From a virus (lineage: Duplodnaviria > Heunggongvirae > Uroviricota > Caudoviricetes), in the IMG/VR virus record IMGVR_UViG_2531839200_000011, positions 1-7,066 of that record: a stretch of DNA of 7,066 bases. The stretch is one strand, 5' to 3'. Below are positions 1-7,066 of the stretch, piece after piece (the stretch's first letter is position 1; each line of letters starts with the position of its first letter). The translations under genes were made by a program, and so were the position numbers. The notes under the pieces are model-generated. The model was not told the DNA's origin. It did no database searches and saw nothing but the letters and a program-made list of their open reading frames with translations.

Positions 1-210
1 ACGTTCAGCGCTGGTGAGCCCACCATCACCGCCCCCGGTATCCCGCTCATGCTGGCGAACCCAGACACGCAGAGTCTCCGGCGTACAGCCAATCTTTGGG
101 GCAATGGAACAAATTGCCGCCCACTGTGAGTCATATTCATCCTGACTTTCCAGAACCATACGAATCGCCCGCTGACGGACTTCGGGGGAAAAACGAGTAT
201 TTTTAGTCAT
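1..210 (-). CDS. IS3-family transposase OrfA (HTH subunit), N-terminal 70 codons; 3' part lies outside the window
   Basis: ATG at complement 208-210, preceded on the minus strand by GAGG-containing AGAGGTAAACAGG. The translation is a characteristic IS3-family OrfA N-terminus. The frame is open to the window edge. Confidence 0.85.
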
Positions 211-264
211 CCTGTTTACCTCTTTCTCAGGGAGTTTAGTCTCCAGGATTTCCGGGGCGGTTCA
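1..264 (-). mobile_element. Partial IS3-family insertion sequence (IS629/IS1203-like), left-end terminal inverted repeat at about 211-264; the element continues beyond the window start
   Basis: The minus strand of 1-210 translates to [70 protein letters not shown], which matches from memory the N-terminus of IS629-type OrfA. The reverse complement of 211-264 starts TGAACCGCCCCGG, a typical IS3-family TG terminus. Base composition and coding change abruptly after about 264. Confidence 0.8.
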
Positions 265-497
265 CTCAGGCTGAAATAGGTCGTTATATGGGGGTCGCTC
301 AACAGACGGTTTGGCAATGGTTTAGCTTTGGCGTTCCCCCAAAGCAGGTAATTCCGTTATGCCAACTAATGAAGTGGGAAGTTACCCCGCATGAAATCCG
401 CCCAGATATTTATCCTAACCCAACCGACGGTTTACCTGTTGGATGTAAGGTTAACACATCAAATGCGCCGGAGTTGATTCATGAAAATCAAGCATGA
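265..497 (+). pseudogene. 5'-truncated cro/ydaS-type HTH regulator gene, interrupted by the IS insertion
   Basis: The frame is open from the IS junction to the TGA at 495-497 and reads ...QAEIGRYMGVAQQTVWQWFSFGVPPKQVIPLCQLMKWEVTPHEIRPDIYPNP.... This has the recognition-helix signature (GVxQQxVxQW) and the C-terminal 'RPD' motif of YdaS/Cro-like proteins. The N-terminal helices and promoter are missing. The ATG at 288 is probably an internal Met, not the native start. Confidence 0.6.
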
Positions 498-906
498 ACA
501 CATCCGCATGGCGATGAATGCCTGGGCGCATCCGGACGGCGAAAAAGTACCGGCTGCGAAAATTACCAAAGCGTATTTCGAGCTGGGAATGACGTTCCCG
601 GAACTGTATGACGACAGCCATCCGGAAGCCATGGCTCGCAATACTCAGAAAATTTTCCGCTGGGTGGAGAAAGACACTCCTGATGCGGTTAAAAAAATTC
701 AGGCGTTGTTACCAGCGATCGAAAAAGCGATGCCGCCTCCGCTGGTGGCCCGAATGCGCAGCCACAGTTCCGCTTATTTTCGGGAGTTGGTAGAGACGAA
801 GGAACGGCTGGTGAAAGATATTGATGATTTCGTTGCATCAGCGATCGTTCTGTTCGATCAGATGAATCGTGGTGGCCCGGCAGGAAACACTCTGGCTGTG
901 CATTAA
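481..906 (+). CDS. ydaT: YdaT-family protein (lambdoid prophage early gene; putative CII-like/toxin-like protein)
   Basis: 141-aa ORF beginning MKIKHEHI and ending ...VH, the characteristic start of Rac-type YdaT as I recall it. GGAG lies 8 nt upstream. The start overlaps the 3' end of the cro-like remnant, consistent with an operon. Confidence 0.7.
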   Translation: MKIKHEHIRMAMNAWAHPDGEKVPAAKITKAYFELGMTFPELYDDSHPEAMARNTQKIFRWVEKDTPDAVKKIQALLPAIEKAMPPPLVARMRSHSSAYFRELVETKERLVKDIDDFVASAIVLFDQMNRGGPAGNTLAVH

Positions 907-919
907 TTGGGTAATAAAT

Positions 920-1429
920 ATGAGTAATGACAAAAAATTGACACTGAGCGTTTACGAAAACAGTCCGCACATCTGGCGTGGCGGTTTATCTGATGTGGAG
1001 CTGGCAGAGTGGTTGATACATAAAGCTAATGCGCTGCTCTGGCGTTTGTCAGCCAGAGAACAGCGCAAGGAAACCAGAATAAAGCTGGCTGATGCAGAAG
1101 CGTGTGCCGGGCTTATTGAGGATTATACAAATCTTGGTATTTCTTCAGCAGAGAGTGATCCCATTCAGCCTCTGAGCAGGGAGTCAATCCAGCACGCTGG
1201 TTGTATGGCACATCTTGTAACTGCTCGTCAACATGAGGTGGGTATTGGATCACTTCCGGCGGGATATTCGCTGATTCCAGAGCTGGTTGAAGCAAGAAAA
1301 TCAGTTCAGAAAAAGAGAGATGACGCACTTCAATTATTGAGAGAGCACTATGGCGCGATACCAGAATGCGAACAGCGTCGATACCCTGAAGGTTATGAAT
1401 GGATGCAGTCTCTTTTTGAAGTTCGCTAA
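920..1429 (+). CDS. Hypothetical prophage early protein (169 aa)
   Basis: ATG at 920 lies 13 nt after the ydaT stop and the frame is open to TAA at 1427-1429. Composition is protein-like (MSNDKKLTLSVYENSPHIWRGG...). No family recognised. The track ORF starting at 869 overlaps ydaT and is probably an artefactual 5' extension. Confidence 0.5.
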   Translation: MSNDKKLTLSVYENSPHIWRGGLSDVELAEWLIHKANALLWRLSAREQRKETRIKLADAEACAGLIEDYTNLGISSAESDPIQPLSRESIQHAGCMAHLVTARQHEVGIGSLPAGYSLIPELVEARKSVQKKRDDALQLLREHYGAIPECEQRRYPEGYEWMQSLFEVR

Positions 1430-1646
1430 TCAATATGTCGAGACGAAGGTATGTTTCGGCGCGCAGCCAGGCTCTGTAATCCGGGAGCATTTCGGGGCTG
1501 TTACACCAGCGGTTTGTTGCTGCAACATTTAATACATGAGCCTGATAAAGGCTTTTCAAAAAATACATGTCGAACCTCCTCTGGTTCTGTCGATTGGGAA
1601 CCACAGATTATATCCGGAGGAAGGTTCGGCACCAGATGAGGTAGCC

Positions 1647-2738
1647 ATGCGTGATTACGCAAAAGTTTCTCCGCGATTCTGGCTGGGAGAAACGGGGAGA
1701 GAACTTAGAAAGGCGGGTGCAGAAGCGCAAGTTGTTGCTTTTTACCTGATGACATCCCCTCACGCAAATATGCTGGGTTTGTATTACCTGCCAGTTTTAT
1801 ACCTTGCTCATGAAACCGGGCTTGGTCTGGAAGGGGCTTCAAAGGGGCTTAAAAGGGCTGTTGAAGCTGGTTTTTGTAGCTATGACCATGATGCAGAGAT
1901 GGTCTGGGTCCATGAAATGGCAGCCTGGCAGGTTGGGGAAACGTTGAAGCCTGGCGATAACCGTTGTGCAGGTGTCAGGAATGAGTATGCATCATTACCT
2001 GAAAACGCTTTTCTGTCAGTGTTTTACGACAGATATAAAACGGATTTCCATCTGGATGTGAGGCGGAATAATAGCCGAAATTCGGTAAGGGGCTTCGAAG
2101 GGGCTTTTAAGGGGCTTCGAAGCCAAGAACAGGAACAGGAGCAGGAGAAAGAACAGGAACAGGACAAAAACACTATGGTTCATGGCAAAAAAAACACCAC
2201 GAACCAGGCAGGGGATGTTCAGACCGTCAATCCTGGTCAGCCAGCAGGCACGACACCGGAAGCCGATTCGGGCGCTGTGCAGCAGGTGATGACCGCAGGG
2301 TCGGAGCAATCACACCAACTGCAGCAGCCTGAAGCCGATTCCGCCATTCAGCGGGAAGCCGATCGGGTAGTCCCGGAAAGCACCGGGCAGTCTGTGGGAC
2401 GAGTGGATTATCCGGATGTGTTCGAACAGGTCTGGCGGGAATACCCGTTGCGTGCTGGGGCAAACCCGAAGAAATCCGCTTTCAGTGCCTGGAAGGCCAG
2501 ATTGCGCGAGGGGGTGCCACCAGAGACCATGCTGGATGGTGTGAGGCGTTACGCGAGATACCTGGCGGCGACCGGGAAAGCGGGAACGGAATTTGTTCAG
2601 CGAGCGACGACGTTTTTTGGGCCGGACCGGAATTTTGAAAACCCCTGGTTGCTCCCGGTAAGCGGCACGAACAACCAGCGTTGTGTGAATCATATTTCTG
2701 AACCGGATACCGAAATTCCGCCGGGATTCAGGGGGTGA
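1647..2738 (+). CDS. Phage replication initiator / replisome organiser with DnaT-like (primosomal protein 1) C-terminal domain
   Basis: The ATG at 1647 has GAGG 6 nt upstream; an alternative in-frame ATG at 1536 has no SD. The C-terminus ...VNHISEPDTEIPPGFRG matches the C-terminal signature of E. coli DnaT from memory. The N-terminal part (MRDYAKVSPRFWLGETGREL...) resembles YdaU/DUF1376-type phage replication proteins. The gene sits immediately upstream of a DnaC paralog, mirroring the chromosomal dnaT-dnaC pair. Confidence 0.8.
   Translation: MRDYAKVSPRFWLGETGRELRKAGAEAQVVAFYLMTSPHANMLGLYYLPVLYLAHETGLGLEGASKGLKRAVEAGFCSYDHDAEMVWVHEMAAWQVGETLKPGDNRCAGVRNEYASLPENAFLSVFYDRYKTDFHLDVRRNNSRNSVRGFEGAFKGLRSQEQEQEQEKEQEQDKNTMVHGKKNTTNQAGDVQTVNPGQPAGTTPEADSGAVQQVMTAGSEQSHQLQQPEADSAIQREADRVVPESTGQSVGRVDYPDVFEQVWREYPLRAGANPKKSAFSAWKARLREGVPPETMLDGVRRYARYLAATGKAGTEFVQRATTFFGPDRNFENPWLLPVSGTNNQRCVNHISEPDTEIPPGFRG
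1831..1860 (+). repeat. Three tandem 11-bp repeats AAGGGGCTTnn (third copy degenerate) inside the replication gene
   Basis: Read directly: aaggggcttc(a) at 1831, aaggggctta(a) at 1842, aagggctg at 1853, with 11-bp periodicity. Confidence 0.5.
2087..2124 (+). repeat. Three perfect-core tandem 11-bp repeats AAGGGGCTTnn plus palindrome GGCTTCGAAGCC; candidate iterons of an internal origin
   Basis: Read directly: aaggggcttcg (2087-2097), aaggggctttt (2098-2108), aaggggcttcg (2109-2119). ggcttcgaagcc (2113-2124) is a perfect 12-bp palindrome. The core is the same as in the 1831-1860 cluster. Confidence 0.5.
2127..2168 (+). repeat. In-frame hexanucleotide repeat (GAACAG)n-like, 7 units, encoding an EQEQEQEKEQEQDK linker, followed by an A-rich tract
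   Basis: Read directly: gaacag gaacag gagcag gagaaa gaacag gaacag gacaaa. It is in frame with the 1647 start. An A-rich stretch (gcaaaaaaaacacc) follows at about 2185-2198. Confidence 0.9.
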
Positions 2739-2744
2739 TGTGGC

Positions 2745-3491
2745 ATGAAAAACATTGCGGCAGCCGGGGTTCTTGAACGTATTCGCAGACTTGCACCACA
2801 GGCGTCGGTTCCACCGTACCGGACGGTGGAGGAGTGGCGGGAATGGCAACTTGCTGAAGGACGAAAACGCAGCGAGGAGATTAACCGCCAGAATCACCAG
2901 TTGCGGGTGGAAAAAATCCTGAATCGTTCGGGCATCCAGCCTCTGCACAGCAAATGCTCGTTTGCGAATTATCAGGTGCAGAACGACGGGCAAAAATACG
3001 CGCTGAGCCAGGCCAAATCCATAGCTGACGAACTGATGACCGGGTGCACGAATTTTGTGTTCAGCGGTAAAACCGGCACCGGGAAAAATCACCTTGCAGC
3101 GGCGATGGGTAACCGGCTGATGGCGAAGGGGCGCAGCGTGATTATCGTCACCGTGTCTGATGTCATGAGCGTGTTGCATGACAGCTACGACAACGGCAAA
3201 TCCGGGGAAAAATTTTTACAGGAGCTTTGCAGTGTTGATTTGCTGGTCCTGGATGAAATAGGCGTTCAGCGGGAGACGAAAAACGAGCAGGTGGTATTAC
3301 ACCAGATAATTGATCGCCGGACAGCATCACTGTGCAGTGTCGGGATGTTAACAAACCTGAATCATGCCGCAATGAGTACACTTCTTGGTGAGAGGATTAT
3401 GGACCGCATGACCATGAACGGTGGTCGATGGGTGACGTTTAACTGGGATAGCTGGCGTCCAAATGTCAGCAATATGAGGGTTGTGAAGTAA
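2745..3491 (+). CDS. dnaC: DnaC-family replicative helicase loader (prophage DnaC paralog, YdaV-like)
   Basis: The 248-aa ORF starts 7 nt after the upstream stop, with a GGGGG tract upstream. Walker A FSGKTGTGKNHLAAA has the unusual GKN also found in E. coli DnaC. Walker B is DLLVLDEIG. The C-terminal stretch GMLTNLNHAAMSTLLGERIMDRM...WVTFNWDSWR is closely DnaC-like from memory. Confidence 0.9.
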   Translation: MKNIAAAGVLERIRRLAPQASVPPYRTVEEWREWQLAEGRKRSEEINRQNHQLRVEKILNRSGIQPLHSKCSFANYQVQNDGQKYALSQAKSIADELMTGCTNFVFSGKTGTGKNHLAAAMGNRLMAKGRSVIIVTVSDVMSVLHDSYDNGKSGEKFLQELCSVDLLVLDEIGVQRETKNEQVVLHQIIDRRTASLCSVGMLTNLNHAAMSTLLGERIMDRMTMNGGRWVTFNWDSWRPNVSNMRVVK

Positions 3492-3512
3492 TTTTGTCCG
3501 GAGGAAATTTTA

Positions 3513-4283
3513 ATGGAAACCGTATCTGACGCACTGAAAGCACTGAAAAAAGCCTCTTCACATGTGGTGGCAGCTCGCCTTGGAATCAGTCGTGAAGAGG
3601 CTGTCAACGAGCTGTGGGAACTCAAAATAAATGGCGTCGTTGATAAAACTGGTCACACCTGGTTTCTGGCTGGCGAAGGTGAATCCCGGGTAACCGAAGA
3701 GCGGCCAGTAAAATCTGAAGCACAGGATATGCTGACCGGGGAGGTCGAACAAAAAGTTACCGCAGACATGATGATTGAGTTTATCGGTCAGGATGGGGCT
3801 AAAACGTGTGAGGAACTGGCGGGTAAGTTCGGTGTCAGTACTCGCAAGGTTGCTTCCACGCTGGCGGTGGTAACCGCAACGGGGCGGCTGGCACGCGTTA
3901 ATCAGAACGGTAAATTTCGTTACTGCATGCCGGGCGATAATTTACCAGCAGAGCCGAAAGCCGCGCTGGTAACGGAAAGTGATGGTAAGGCCTTTCCTCA
4001 GCCAGCAGGTGCTGCGTTACCAGTCCGGGAAGCCGCAACACAGGAAGAAATTAAAACAGAAACTGTGGCGGACATTGTGCAGCCGTTGCCATCGTTTACC
4101 GAAACGCAAGCAGATGAGCTGATTTTTCCGTCCCTTCGCAGGGCAAACCTGGCGCTGCGCAGGGCGAAAAGTGATGTTCAGAAGTGGGAGCGAGTCTGCG
4201 CCGCGCTGCGGGAGCTGAACAAGCACCGGGATATTGTTCGACAGATTACTGATTCTTCCCGCCGTGTTGTATCGGAAAAGTGA
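3513..4283 (+). CDS. Hypothetical prophage protein (256 aa) with two predicted winged-helix-like modules and a basic/coiled C-terminal segment
   Basis: GGAGG 8 nt upstream of the ATG and a long open frame. Two internally similar segments, ...VAARLGISREEAVNELWELKINGVV... and ...ELAGKFGVSTRKVASTLAVVTATGRLARV..., are followed by an acidic linker and RRANLALRRAKSDVQKWERV. Confidence 0.7.
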   Translation: METVSDALKALKKASSHVVAARLGISREEAVNELWELKINGVVDKTGHTWFLAGEGESRVTEERPVKSEAQDMLTGEVEQKVTADMMIEFIGQDGAKTCEELAGKFGVSTRKVASTLAVVTATGRLARVNQNGKFRYCMPGDNLPAEPKAALVTESDGKAFPQPAGAALPVREAATQEEIKTETVADIVQPLPSFTETQADELIFPSLRRANLALRRAKSDVQKWERVCAALRELNKHRDIVRQITDSSRRVVSEK

Positions 4284-4298
4284 TTGCCGGAGGCGCTT

Positions 4299-4712
4299 AT
4301 GGCAAAAGTATTTACACAGGAAGAGCGGGAAAAAATTAAAGGGCAGGTTGTTGAGCTAGTACGCCGGAGTGGGCGCGAGACGTTACGGCAACTGGAAGCC
4401 AAGACAGGTGCGACAAGATATCTGATGAGCGTTCTTGCCAGAGAGCTGGTTGCCAGTGGCGATGTATACAACTCTGGTTACGGGTTATTCCCATCTGAAC
4501 AGGCTCGTAAGGACTGGCAAAACGCCCGCAAAAAACTATCGAGGGCAAAACTGAAGAAACCGGTTGTGGTTGATCCTGACCTTATCTGGTCATTACCAGA
4601 CGGAGAAATACGCCGCTATGACAGGCAATTGAACATAATTTGTAGTGAGTGCCGTAACAGTGAAGTGATGCAGCGAGTTTTGATATTTTACACAGGAGTA
4701 ATGATGGAATAG
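4299..4712 (+). CDS. Hypothetical prophage protein (137 aa) with one winged-helix-like module related to those in the upstream gene
   Basis: ATG at 4299 with GGAGG 6 nt upstream, 15 nt after the previous stop. The segment VVELVRRSGRETLRQLEAKTGATRYLMSVLARELVASGDV follows the same pattern as the upstream modules. The track start at 4284 would overlap the upstream stop. Confidence 0.65.
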   Translation: MAKVFTQEEREKIKGQVVELVRRSGRETLRQLEAKTGATRYLMSVLARELVASGDVYNSGYGLFPSEQARKDWQNARKKLSRAKLKKPVVVDPDLIWSLPDGEIRRYDRQLNIICSECRNSEVMQRVLIFYTGVMME

Positions 4713-6060
4713 TGAAAATAACATGAAACCTTTGGATTCTGGTGTTTCAGTGGATGGGAAAAGAGCAGATACATAGAAAATGAATAGCAATAATTCACAG
4801 TCTGGATGTTGTTTGTATGCTTATAAAATGATCCTAGTATGCATTGCCGGAGTTGAATCAGCTCCAATGAAGAAACTGAGAGGAGTATTTAGAAGATAGC
4901 TAAATGGATGTAATTATTAGTATCTAAAAAATAGTATTTTTGAAATGGGTCTAAGAACACAACAATGTACAAATGAGAAGTTATCTTTTAATATGTTCAA
5001 AGACCCATTAGGATTGATATCAGTTATGTTAGCTAGATTGATAAAGTGATTACATATTTTCTGTTATATGCTGAAATGAATAATGCTATTCCAGAGTGCA
5101 GCAGAGAAAGTCTCCTGATGATTGAGCTCTGGAAATTGTACAATAGAAAAATTACTGTATTTTTCTGTCAAAATATTTCTCAAAACAGATTCCGCTTTGA
5201 TGGCTTCAGGATATAAAGATGCGGAGTAATCAAGGCTAAGATTTCCGTTAAGCAAGCATATACTTTTAGTGTGCTTTGATTCTGATATATCATCTTTAAT
5301 TATCTTGATGATTCTTTCATTCTGCCATAGAAGTGATGGTGCAGATATATAATAATAGTTAAAGCATGAATTATTTTTTAAGCAATCAAGCACAAAAATA
5401 GCACCTAGCGAGTGCCCCCATATACCGATTCTGGAACTGTTCGGAGCAATAGTACTAACCCATGGCATGATCTGAGTTAGTAATAATTCTCGGAAAGACT
5501 GGCTTCCTCCACCAGTAAAGTAGATCCATGCTGGTTTAGAGTTATCAACAATAGCATTTTCACCATCAGGAGTATAATCGTAAGCACGGCGATGAATGCT
5601 AAGGTTATTCCAAGATTCATAACCAAGTGTAACTAACACTGGTGGATTGGGTAGTGCATCAATAACAGGCAGAATATCAGAAATGTAATTGTTGGCACTA
5701 TTCCCATCAAGTATATAAAGAGTTGCATTATTTTTTTTAATGTTTTTTGGAGTAAAAATACATATTTTATATTTGGTGTCATGGTTAATTGAGTTAAATA
5801 TGCGTGTTTGACAATGAATGTCCATATGTTTAGTCATGCGTTCTCCCCATGAGCATTAAAGGATGCTTAAGATATGCTATGTCACTGATAAAAAATTTGT
5901 TGTGTGTGTTTAGTTATTTTATCTACCTCCATTATGATTTAAGACTGATATATGTTATCAGCAAAGGTACATCGTTATTATTTTACCTGTCAATACATTT
6001 GATATTGATTATCGTTTACATCGCTTGCTTAGGAAATTGAAGGCAGGTAACTATCATGTC
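4713..6060. other. AT-rich island (moron-like cargo insertion) between the phage replication module and the hok locus
   Basis: Composition shifts sharply to AT-rich sequence across this interval. It holds a single convincing gene, on the opposite strand to all flanking phage genes, flanked by non-coding AT-rich DNA. Confidence 0.7.
5064..5837 (-). CDS. Alpha/beta-hydrolase, esterase family (PF00756-like 'putative esterase'; Fes/IroE/esterase-D-like fold), encoded in an AT-rich island
   Basis: 257-aa ORF on the minus strand; on that strand the start is preceded by GGGGAGAACGC, i.e. a GGAG about 5 nt upstream. Nucleophile elbow G-H-S-L-G (IGIWGHSLGA), an upstream YILDGN motif and a C-terminal His (ELNHQETF) fit a Ser-Asp-His esterase. 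No obvious N-terminal signal peptide. G+C looks roughly one-third by eye versus above 50% in flanking phage genes. Confidence 0.75.
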   Translation of the reverse strand: MTKHMDIHCQTRIFNSINHDTKYKICIFTPKNIKKNNATLYILDGNSANNYISDILPVIDALPNPPVLVTLGYESWNNLSIHRRAYDYTPDGENAIVDNSKPAWIYFTGGGSQSFRELLLTQIMPWVSTIAPNSSRIGIWGHSLGAIFVLDCLKNNSCFNYYYISAPSLLWQNERIIKIIKDDISESKHTKSICLLNGNLSLDYSASLYPEAIKAESVLRNILTEKYSNFSIVQFPELNHQETFSAALWNSIIHFSI

Positions 6061-6319
6061 AATGAACTAACCCACAGTCTAACGTACTTCTTTCCCCAAT
6101 CACCAACAACCAAATTCCTGTTATCACCACTGGGATTTTGGCGCAACTTCATGGTGCAGAGGTAAATAGCATCAAGCAAAATCTCTTTTTCCGTTGTTGT
6201 CCTTATGGGACGTCTGTCTTTCTGACCGATTTCATATTGGCGAGGTAATGGGAAGTTAAGTAGAATAGCTGCGGGTGCTTGAGGCTATCTGCCTCGGGCA
6301 TGAACACCAACGGCAGATA

Positions 6320-6400
6320 GAGAAAAGCCCCAGTTAACATTACGCGTCCTGCAAGACGCCTAACATTAATCTGAGGCTCAATCTATGAACGGCAAATCTA
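6320..6400 (-). ncRNA. sok: Putative Sok-like antisense RNA region (approximate), antisense to the hok leader / upstream ORF start
   Basis: Inferred from hok/sok architecture. On the minus strand near 6390-6430 there is TTGCCT, a 17-bp spacer, then TAACCT as a weak promoter-like pair. A stem-loop (atctgcc...ggcagat, 6286-6319) lies in the leader. The boundaries are not determined. Confidence 0.3.
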
Positions 6401-6441
6401 GGTTAGCCTCTTACGTGCCGAAAGGCAAGGAGAAGCAGGCT

Positions 6442-6597
6442 ATGAAGCAGCAAAAGGCGATGTTAATCGCCCTGATCGTCATCTGTTTAACCGTCATAGT
6501 GACGGCACTGGTAACGAGGAAAGACCTCTGCGAGGTACGAGTCCGAACCGGCCAGACGGAGGTCGCTGTCTTCACAGCTTACGAACCTGAGGAGTAA
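6442..6597 (+). CDS. hok: Hok/Gef-family type I toxin (51 aa membrane peptide), near-identical to RelF/HokD as recalled
   Basis: The translation MKQQKAMLIALIVICLTVIVTALVTRKDLCEVRVRTGQTEVAVFTAYEPEE is a canonical Hok-family sequence. An in-frame upstream ATG at 6385 gives the 70-aa track ORF, which may be the leader or a Mok-like reading frame. Confidence 0.9.
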   Translation: MKQQKAMLIALIVICLTVIVTALVTRKDLCEVRVRTGQTEVAVFTAYEPEE

Positions 6598-6664
6598 GAG
6601 ACCTGGCGGGGGAGAAATCCCTCGCCACCTCTGATGAATCAGGCATCCTCAACGCACCCGCACT

Positions 6665-6692
6665 TAACCCGCTTCGGCGGGTTTTGTTTTTT
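6665..6692 (+). terminator. Rho-independent terminator of the hok transcript
   Basis: aacccgc-ttcg-gcgggtt hairpin followed by the T-run ttttgtttttt, about 70 nt after the hok stop. Confidence 0.8.
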
Positions 6693-6764
6693 CCTGGCAT
6701 TCTGGTTTACAATTCGCACGCCAGCCTGAACAACTGGCACCTGCTGCGCCAGCAGAGAAAACAG

Positions 6765-7043
6765 ATGGCGCACGATACCAAATTATACAATTCGGATAAC
6801 TCTGCCGCCCCTGCCAGCAGGCACGGACGGCGTTCTCACGCATTCAAATCTGACTGGTACCAGCACCACCCATGCACCGAAGAACAGGCCGAATGGCTCA
6901 TTCAGTGTTACCGCAGGCGCGGATACGAGGTTAAAAAAGCCCTCAGCCTCGACTACCGTCACTGGATAATCTCCGTCAGGCTCCCTTACTCCGAACGCCC
7001 ACCGCGTCCGTCCCGCACATTCCAGCAACGCATCTGGAGGTAA
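6765..7043 (+). CDS. Hypothetical small basic protein (92 aa)
   Basis: ATG at 6765 downstream of the hok terminator; the track start at 6684 is a TTG inside the terminator and is unlikely. Translation: MAHDTKLYNSDNSAAPASRHGRRSHAFKSDWYQHHPCTEEQAEWLIQCYRRRGYEVKK.... Its position downstream of hok is analogous to rem downstream of hokD in the K-12 Qin prophage, but I cannot verify sequence identity. Confidence 0.5.
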   Translation: MAHDTKLYNSDNSAAPASRHGRRSHAFKSDWYQHHPCTEEQAEWLIQCYRRRGYEVKKALSLDYRHWIISVRLPYSERPPRPSRTFQQRIWR

Positions 7044-7044
7044 C

Positions 7045-7066
7045 GTGCGGGTATTACTTCGACCTG
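7045..7066 (+). CDS. Possible 5' end of the next gene (GTG start), truncated by the window end
   Basis: GGAGG at 7036-7040 is followed 4 nt later by GTG at 7045 with an open frame to the window edge. Only 7 codons are visible. Confidence 0.2.

Follow-up and report, generated by a model that had tools for sequence, protein, structure and literature searches.

Why should a word of nine base pairs recur once per helical turn inside the coding sequence of a phage replication gene? The question is raised by a stretch of 7,066 nucleotides (positions 1 to 7,066 of IMG/VR virus record IMGVR_UViG_2531839200_000011, hereafter the window), which comes from the early-right region of a lambdoid prophage of Escherichia coli O157:H7 and related strains and carries an 'Eru4'-type module. 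Here the gene at 1647-2738, whose product is, to judge from its context and family, a phage replication initiator or replisome organizer, contains two clusters of the box AAGGGGCTT. That these boxes are a real, conserved DNA element overlapping the code seems almost certain from comparison of homologous sequences. They are very probably binding sites in double-stranded DNA; it is likely that the protein reading them is the initiator itself, by way of its winged-helix domain; and they probably constitute, or form the core of, the phage origin. On balance, we favour the combined interpretation that the gene's own product binds the boxes through its N-terminal winged-helix domain, and that they form an origin inside the initiator gene. 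The features on which the argument turns are as follows.

1647-2738, + strand: putative replication initiator/replisome-organizer gene (363 amino acids; RefSeq start, PHROG), with N-terminal winged-helix domain, EQ linker and DnaT-like C-terminal module
1647-2081, + strand: coding sequence of the N-terminal domain (amino acids 1-145), modelled as a winged helix (helices 25-36, 49-57 and 60-73; beta-hairpin 77-88)
1831-1850, + strand: cluster 1, two exact AAGGGGCTT boxes (1831, 1842) 11 bp apart (repeat scan; frozen synonymous sites in homologues)
1853-1871, + strand: degenerate in-phase extension of cluster 1, comprising AAGGGCTGT (1853) and a GAAGC half-box (1863-1867, codon E73)
2000-2048, no strand: candidate unwinding region some 40 bp 5' of cluster 2, with the highest AT content in the gene (67.5% over 40 bp)
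2087-2117, + strand: cluster 2, three exact AAGGGGCTT boxes (2087, 2098, 2109) 11 bp apart
2113-2124, no strand: 12-bp palindrome GGCTTCGAAGCC at the junction of the last cluster-2 box with the half-box
2120-2124, + strand: in-phase half-box AAGCC (last base of an Arg codon, Ser codon AGC, first base of a Gln codon)
2121-2168, + strand: SQEQEQEQEKEQEQDK linker with a GAACAG hexamer array (2127-2164), coding strand 83% purine
2167-2738, + strand: exchangeable C-terminal module (megablast matches begin at query position 632, which is window 2167; comparison with phage Tritos)
2176-2206, no strand: imperfect inverted repeat (TGGTTCATGG ... CCACGAACCA) with an A8 loop (2186-2193), at the start of the C-terminal module

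The five exact copies of the box are all on the + strand, neighbours in a cluster being always 11 bp apart and the two clusters 256 bp apart. Only 0.06 copies would be expected, and none of 200 dinucleotide-preserving shuffles reached five. Tandem Repeats Finder reported period-11 arrays at 1831-1857 (2.5 copies, consensus AAGGGGCTTAA) and at 2087-2122 (3.3 copies, AAGGGGCTTCG), so the 11-bp-spaced clusters proposed in a first-pass annotation of this DNA are real. The accompanying idea that they encode a repeated KGLK/KGLR peptide is too simple: the period of 11 cannot be divided by 3, so each box falls in a different reading frame from the one before, those of cluster 2 being read as RGF, EGAF and KGLR, and the peptide motif is therefore a consequence of the DNA repeat rather than its cause. 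Promoter and terminator scans of the window gave nothing exceeding shuffle expectation.

Does selection act on these bases beyond what they encode? Homologues were collected by tblastn and pattern scans. The N-domain has relatives in Shigella phage 75/02 Stx (Stx, Shiga toxin; 72% identity), in Klebsiella, Acinetobacter and Ralstonia phages and in coliphages, and further homologues came from 79 loci in one-genome-per-species bacterial assemblies (gamma- and beta-proteobacteria, locus GC 0.36-0.69) and from 80 viral contigs. The 83 non-identical homologues in the codon alignment (50-80% amino acid identity, GC 0.36-0.69) make almost uniform use of the cluster-1 codons: E62 is GAA in 70/70, G63 is GGG in 73/75, A64 is GCT in 61/76, K66 is AAG in 72/72, G67 is GGG in 65/77 and L68 is CTT in 71/81, while E73, in the half-box, is GAA in 65/69. 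At other conserved Gly codons GGG accounts for just 10-35%, GGC being the usual choice, and saturation is nearly reached at other conserved Leu, Ala and Glu codons. Ten third positions have a commonest base at a frequency of 0.80 or more (Met and Trp excluded), and seven of them are in codons 60-73 (hypergeometric P = 1.6e-6; Mann-Whitney P = 8e-6). With synonymous sites frozen in this way, the constraint on cluster 1 cannot originate from the protein.

Cluster 2 gives the same answer by a different route. With the Ser codon at the head of the S-Q-E-Q-E-Q linker as anchor, the homologues show AAG-SSS-CTT at -23 and -12, followed at -1 of the linker by an A-AGC-C that is 100% invariant (the Ser codon being AGC in 75/75). 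Most members have CCC as the central G/C triplet, while GGG is found in an enterobacterial subgroup that includes the window; in other words, the box is either AAGGGGCTT or its reverse complement AAGCCCCTT, position and phase being kept while orientation varies. Among the 83 sequences, 46 have all boxes inverted (28 with two and 18 with three), eight have all boxes direct with at least two present, and nine are mixed, the local peptide being rewritten accordingly as EGASKGL, EAPSKPL, QAPSKPH, EGASKPL and others. On a neighbour-joining tree made with the box-encoded columns removed, the -23 box has changed orientation six times or more and the -12 box three times or more, each flip needing three concerted substitutions that rewrite two residues yet retain box, position and phase. 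The first-pass annotation had pointed to homologues that keep the peptide motif and lose the DNA repeat as the telling case; in the window's family cluster 2 shows the opposite, DNA boxes being kept while the peptide changes. Its proposal of a dual constraint on this DNA is thus borne out by the frozen synonymous sites of cluster 1 and the conserved position and phase of cluster 2.

The boxes are also concentrated at these two places. Counting those with at most one mismatch, there are 313 in about 9 kb of cluster windows and 102 in 357 kb outside the genes, and across all loci matches to the double-box pattern AAGSSSCTTNNAAGSSSCTT are essentially confined to gene positions +185 and about +440 to +476. 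All five exact boxes of a complete 45-kb Acinetobacter phage are at its rep gene, as are all three found in the first 50 kb of the 60.9-kb Shigella phage 75/02 Stx.

Two divergent homologues deserve mention here. In L080 and L089, from metagenome-assembled genomes of an Undibacterium and a member of the Betaproteobacteria, the start of helix 3 is altered (ANLAAGL), cluster-1 boxes are absent and ACCTT-type repeats of 11-bp period replace cluster 2. Protein and box may have co-varied here; within the family, co-variation of helix 3 with box sequence is no more than anecdotal. Another locus, L074, has an extra pair of box clusters upstream of the initiator gene (-913/-902 and -669/-658/-647), at a spacing of about 245-255 bp like that of clusters 1 and 2, perhaps a second copy of the module or a remnant of one.

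What kind of protein does the gene encode? All the repeat features lie inside an open reading frame (ORF) at 1536-2738, but its true start is probably 1647, because RefSeq annotates that position and the alignment with PHROG 1701 begins at residue 38 of the long ORF. The product matches phrog_1701 ('DnaD-like helicase loader', E 1.3e-148), phrog_3729 ('replication initiation protein') over its C-terminal half and, weakly, phrog_6251 ('replisome organizer DnaA-like', E 1.8e-4). No Pfam family was found at E <= 0.01, nor Phage_rep_O or Phage_rep_org_N (PF09681) at E <= 1, and a PDB sequence search gave no match to the N-domain and otherwise only a weak one to the tail of DnaT. The N-domain models as a winged helix resembling plasmid Rep and DnaD/DnaB-type origin binders, and it is the predicted start of its helix 3 (E62-L68, EGASKGL) that cluster 1 encodes.

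From 2167 onwards, the C-terminal half of the gene has about 92% DNA identity to phages with unrelated N-terminal halves, so the gene consists of two exchangeable modules joined just 3' of the EQ linker. The last residues of the protein (...SEPDTEIPPGFRG) weakly resemble the tail of DnaT. The likeness to the C-terminal tail of this primosomal protein is close in the PDB 6aep alignment (window 2700-2738, ...VNHISEPDTEIPPGFRG), but that match (E 0.44) comprises essentially only the tail ...SEPDxxIPPGFRG. It is limited to the last 24 or so residues, and at 17.7 bits against an NCBIfam cut-off of 201 the protein falls well short of full-length DnaT homology. This hints that the tail may mimic a DnaT interaction.

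Phage Tritos (L170, 2026-3096) shows which of the two modules the boxes belong to. It has the same C-module, a different N-domain (with sub-threshold but full-length likeness to Phage_rep_org_N) and different boxes, GTCACG, again in two clusters: one at gene nucleotides 127-170, within the N-domain coding sequence, and one at 388-438, with five copies at a period of 10-11 bp. The second directly precedes an acidic low-complexity linker (DKDTDKDT), and the boxes are again read in three frames. The boxes therefore travel with the N-domain. In lambdoid phages, too, the iterons travel with the N-terminal part of O, and diverge rapidly with it.

The palindrome, the hexamer repeat and the A-tract, which the first-pass annotation had added to the proposed origin, are not supported in the form proposed. 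The 12-bp palindrome is present, but comparison indicates that it is a by-product of the adjoining box and half-box, the junction being different in homologues (CTTGCAAGCC, CCATCGAAGCC). The GAACAG array (period 6, 2127-2164, 6.3 copies by Tandem Repeats Finder) does encode the EQ linker, but as a DNA-level element it was rejected: E and Q codons are used there as elsewhere in the genes (GAA 226 vs GAG 222), and the length of the linker, 6-34 amino acids in the family, changes by slippage, in 6-nt steps even among near-identical prophages. The strong purine bias of its coding strand follows from the GAR and CAR codons. The proposed A-tract exists as the A8 at 2186-2193; it belongs, however, to the separately exchangeable C-module, and the N-domain family neither conserves it nor has an AT excess beyond +40 of the linker start. 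The inverted repeat around it appeared terminator-like on the minus strand in a scan; Tritos, 75/02 Stx and strain 8178 carry variants of it. Overlapping this region, at 2157-2204 (65% AT), is the gene's second most AT-rich patch, so that cluster 2 and the linker are flanked by the two 40-bp windows of highest AT content in the gene. In the family, AT content between -120 and -70 from the linker is raised in high- and low-GC hosts alike, and 25 of 75 genes have their most AT-rich 40-nt window there; conservation of the upstream patch is moderate. From base composition, then, a melting region near cluster 2 is plausible.

These elements can be assembled into a tentative scheme. After induction, initiator made from the early rightward operon would bind the boxes in several copies, the 11-bp spacing placing them all on the same side of the helix. 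The clusters, which are 256 bp from each other, would be bridged or wrapped into a single nucleoprotein complex, and an adjacent, easily melted stretch would open, the candidates being the AT-rich patch at 2000-2048 and the purine-rich linker and A-tract at 2121-2204. The DnaT-like C-terminal module would then bring in the DnaC-like loader encoded at 2745-3491, the presumed partner of the initiator, together with host DnaB. The order of genes, from cro/cII-like genes through the initiator gene to that of the loader, accords with origin function. As cluster 1 occupies the codons at the start of helix 3, and cluster 2 those of the disordered linker, the same bases would be both code and binding site. 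The locus would thus be a natural example of overlapping codes, in part within a DNA-binding helix, in which orientation flips separate the two constraints. With exact coordinates and a simple, recodable motif to hand, origin function is directly testable, and mini-replicons, or tools to block replication of these prophages, would become possible. A search of the full-text literature found no paper linking the box sequence to phage iterons or origins, and the origin of the module is undescribed there.

Several observations weigh against an origin read by its own initiator. Some homologues (L080, L088 and L089) have no cluster 1. There is no strong, conserved AT-rich unwinding element, the AT content of the family near cluster 2 being only 6-12 points above background. 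In five Acinetobacter loci (L007, L020, L028, L032 and L033) a third phased cluster, missing from the window, lies at -38/-27/-16 over the promoter and ribosome-binding site of the initiator gene, which suggests an autoregulatory role as well in that subgroup. The same box is found, moreover, with very divergent N-domains, among them those of organizer-like proteins whose helix-3 region differs. The published description of the Eru4 module (PMC8951638) calls the loader a 'putative helicase' and gives its first protein as 'of unknown function'.

Might the boxes, then, be mainly sites for a regulatory protein, whether for autorepression of the initiator operon, as a transcriptional roadblock or for copy control by 'handcuffing'? 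The upstream Acinetobacter cluster and the weakness of any unwinding element would both suit such a role, and plasmid Rep proteins commonly use related repeats as operators. We nevertheless think it unlikely, since the window has no box cluster upstream of the initiator gene, and since both conserved clusters are intragenic, at the junction of N-domain and linker, which is the position of ori-lambda and of SPP1 oriL. Regulation and origin function are in any case compatible, and may coexist.

The wide distribution of the box bears on a second alternative, that it is read by some other conserved factor of host or phage. A scan of IMG/VR for AAGGGGCTTNNAAGGGGCTT found at least 120 loci; among the matches listed, 80 were at N-domain homologues and 40 elsewhere. 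Of 16 of the latter that were examined, 13 were in other ORFs resembling replisome organizers (beginning MAKRFTDTEKW... or MAYRFTNTEKW...), in contigs of 31-43% GC. Their boxes, direct or inverted, form an N-terminal cluster and another directly preceding a low-complexity linker (KDMDMD..., GIGNGIG...).

L174, L182, L255, L269; L186, L189, L216, L229, L260; L177, L248 (IMG/VR contigs): organizer-like ORFs with double or triple AAGGGGCTT boxes in 11-bp phase

The loci L176, L197 and L251 showed boxes but no organizer-like ORF. Three of four organizer-like proteins compared with PHROG matched replication families, two of them over the C-terminal part only, and the fourth, L174, matched none. Profile-profile comparison of the window's N-domain with these other box-bearing organizers revealed no similarity beyond the box-encoded peptide (hhalign probability 16%).

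Thus the same 9-bp box, in the same 11-bp phase, accompanies proteins without detectable similarity to the window's N-domain, and such invariance, unlike the co-divergence of iterons and initiators in lambdoid phages, means that another factor may read it. Arguing the other way, partners and hosts vary widely (DnaC-like loaders and primase-helicases; gamma- and beta-proteobacteria and AT-rich contigs), so that no common second protein is evident. No DnaA box occurs within 1400-2800 of the window, the region likewise lacks IHF sites and GATC clusters, and N-domains of the Tritos type carry different boxes. A variant of this alternative makes the boxes junction sequences that promote recombination between N- and C-modules. 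It has in its favour that module exchange occurs directly 3' of the linker (window 2167), but second-order selection of this kind would be unlikely to freeze synonymous sites over such distances. Neither version, a second reader or a recombination junction, strikes us as at all probable.

Could all these systems be related? Tenacibaculum phage JQ (L294, 2489-3232) shares 'TNMLGIY ... FETGL' with the window's family and has an EVEIEVEIE linker but no boxes; it also has a weak tblastn match (30% identity over about 85 amino acids, E 6e-4) to one of the new organizer groups. Such intermediates suggest a very remote common ancestry of the window's family and the new groups. Pseudanabaena phage Pan5 (L293, 2501-3307) is 58% identical over the N-domain to one box-bearing group, and has a similar local peptide but no boxes. 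In that separate box-bearing family, on this comparison, loss of the boxes with retention of the peptide does occur, which is the pattern that the first-pass annotation had set against a DNA-level role. The box-bearing set as a whole comprises gamma- and beta-proteobacterial prophages and AT-rich viral contigs, the nearest relatives of the latter being a cyanophage and, weakly, a Bacteroidota phage. We raise, with considerable reserve, the possibility that AAGGGGCTT, repeated once per helical turn, is a common cis-element of a broad and sequence-divergent range of phage replisome organizers. In many members the word would then be written into the codons of the putative recognition helix, an overlap that would freeze site and code together and so account for an origin specificity that, in contrast to that of lambdoid O/ori pairs, has stayed uniform. 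On this view one would expect unrelated phages to cross-activate each other's origins, or satellites to hijack them.

A third alternative is that the clusters act as RNA or single-stranded DNA, cluster 1 pairing with an inverted cluster 2 in a long-range stem. The clusters are indeed reverse complements in most homologues, and pairing is predicted for those of the Acinetobacter phage (321-nt fold, z = -4.9). Yet conservation of the boxes is no weaker in the enterobacterial subgroup, where both clusters are direct, and arrays of mixed orientation exist. Compensatory changes are not seen, the variant boxes of Ralstonia phage NK-7 being without matching changes, and Rfam places no family over the boxes, its sole match in the window being sok, far from this region. 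For the window itself a long-range stem was rejected, because direct clusters cannot pair and the fold contains local hairpins only. As a general explanation we regard it as very improbable. Hardly credible at all is the notion that the repeats are purely coding or mutational, whether as a duplicated peptide motif or as products of slippage, which the comparative data contradict.

The module is widespread. The segment 1536-2200 (665 bases) is found with 100% identity in many complete genomes, and is present in 477 of 5426 complete E. coli genomes, the carriers including many O157:H7 and other Shiga-toxin-producing strains. The replication module occurs also in Stx1 phages of Eru4 type, and there are at least 1545 related proteins in public data. 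Around the initiator gene, the following genes were recognized.

288-497: YdaS-like gene
481-906: YdaT-like gene
between the YdaT-like gene and the 1647-2738 gene: ORF of unassigned function
2745-3491, + strand: gene for a DnaC-like (DnaC/IstB-like) AAA+ helicase loader (NCBIfam PRK12377, E 1.6e-153; Pfam IstB_IS21, Bac_DnaA)
3' of the DnaC/IstB-like gene: DUF1627 and DUF977 genes, the latter at 4299-4712

Upstream, two long ORFs overlap on opposite strands: the + strand ORF at 920-1429 has a full-length match to PHROG 8304 (E 4e-120), and RefSeq annotates instead the minus-strand ORF (about 1113-1568), as an 'ECs1072 family phage-associated protein'. Downstream, the DUF977 gene is split by ISEc8 in strain PV15-279, and 3' of it an AT-rich island (about 4713-6050) containing a minus-strand alpha/beta-hydrolase-like ORF (5064-5837) looks like an inserted moron. 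Beyond this is a hok/sok toxin-antitoxin module at 6273-6597 (Rfam sok at 6273-6447, 105.6 bits; Hok-family ORF at 6385-6597, Pfam E 1.5e-22).

How does all this compare with known systems? The Eru4 type was defined in Stx phages, with Shigella phage 75/02 as type phage (PMC8951638), and the Eru papers describe no origin or repeats (PMC8951638, PMC8044961). The Eru4 module of phage 75/02 Stx has the same gene family and order as the window, just downstream of the cI/cro/cII region, with 72% amino acid identity over an N-domain that bears the same boxes, a shared C-module, and DnaC-like and DUF1627 neighbours. There is a more general likeness to the Rep proteins of iteron plasmids, in the winged-helix fold modelled for the N-domain. 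Plasmid iterons, however, are typically 17-22 bp long and intergenic, often with DnaA boxes, whereas the boxes of the window are of 9 bp, intragenic and without a DnaA box.

For an origin inside an initiator gene there are two clear precedents, ori-lambda in the middle of gene O (PMC7466680) and SPP1 oriL within gene 38 (PMC6316719). As in lambda, there is in the window a repeat array next to potentially easily melted DNA inside the initiator gene, at the junction of a putative DNA-binding N-domain and a flexible linker (PMC7466680; compare also the Stx phages 933W and P27); the N-domain and repeats form one module and the putative helicase-loader-recruiting C-domain another; and the gene has the same position in the early rightward operon. 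The parallel with lambda drawn at first pass thus stands for the siting of the array, but not for the protein, which has no sequence relationship to lambda O and matches no Pfam family. The sites differ too: 9-bp boxes at an 11-bp period, as against four to six 19-bp dyad iterons, so that only the mid-gene location is common. The boxes form two clusters, 256 bp apart, of which one lies within the codons of the presumed DNA-binding domain itself; the partner is a DnaC-like AAA+ loader and not lambda P, and the box is nearly invariant in the window's family, whereas lambda-type iterons co-diverge with their initiator. SPP1 G38P binds direct repeats in its own gene beside an AT-rich unwinding element, and then recruits loader and helicase (PMC6316719). 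The window has direct repeats inside an organizer gene, under selection at the DNA level and predicted to be bound, but its protein is below any Pfam threshold for Phage_rep_org_N, the repeats are different, and no second, distant origin equivalent to oriR was found on scanning two phage genomes, one of them complete and the other nearly so. By analogy, therefore, the box system appears to be an origin-in-gene of the lambda/SPP1 kind in its logic, while standing outside the lambda O family. What sets it apart is the size of the box, its phasing, the two-cluster layout, the overlap with the codons of the presumptive recognition helix, the freedom of orientation and the unusual invariance of the box itself.

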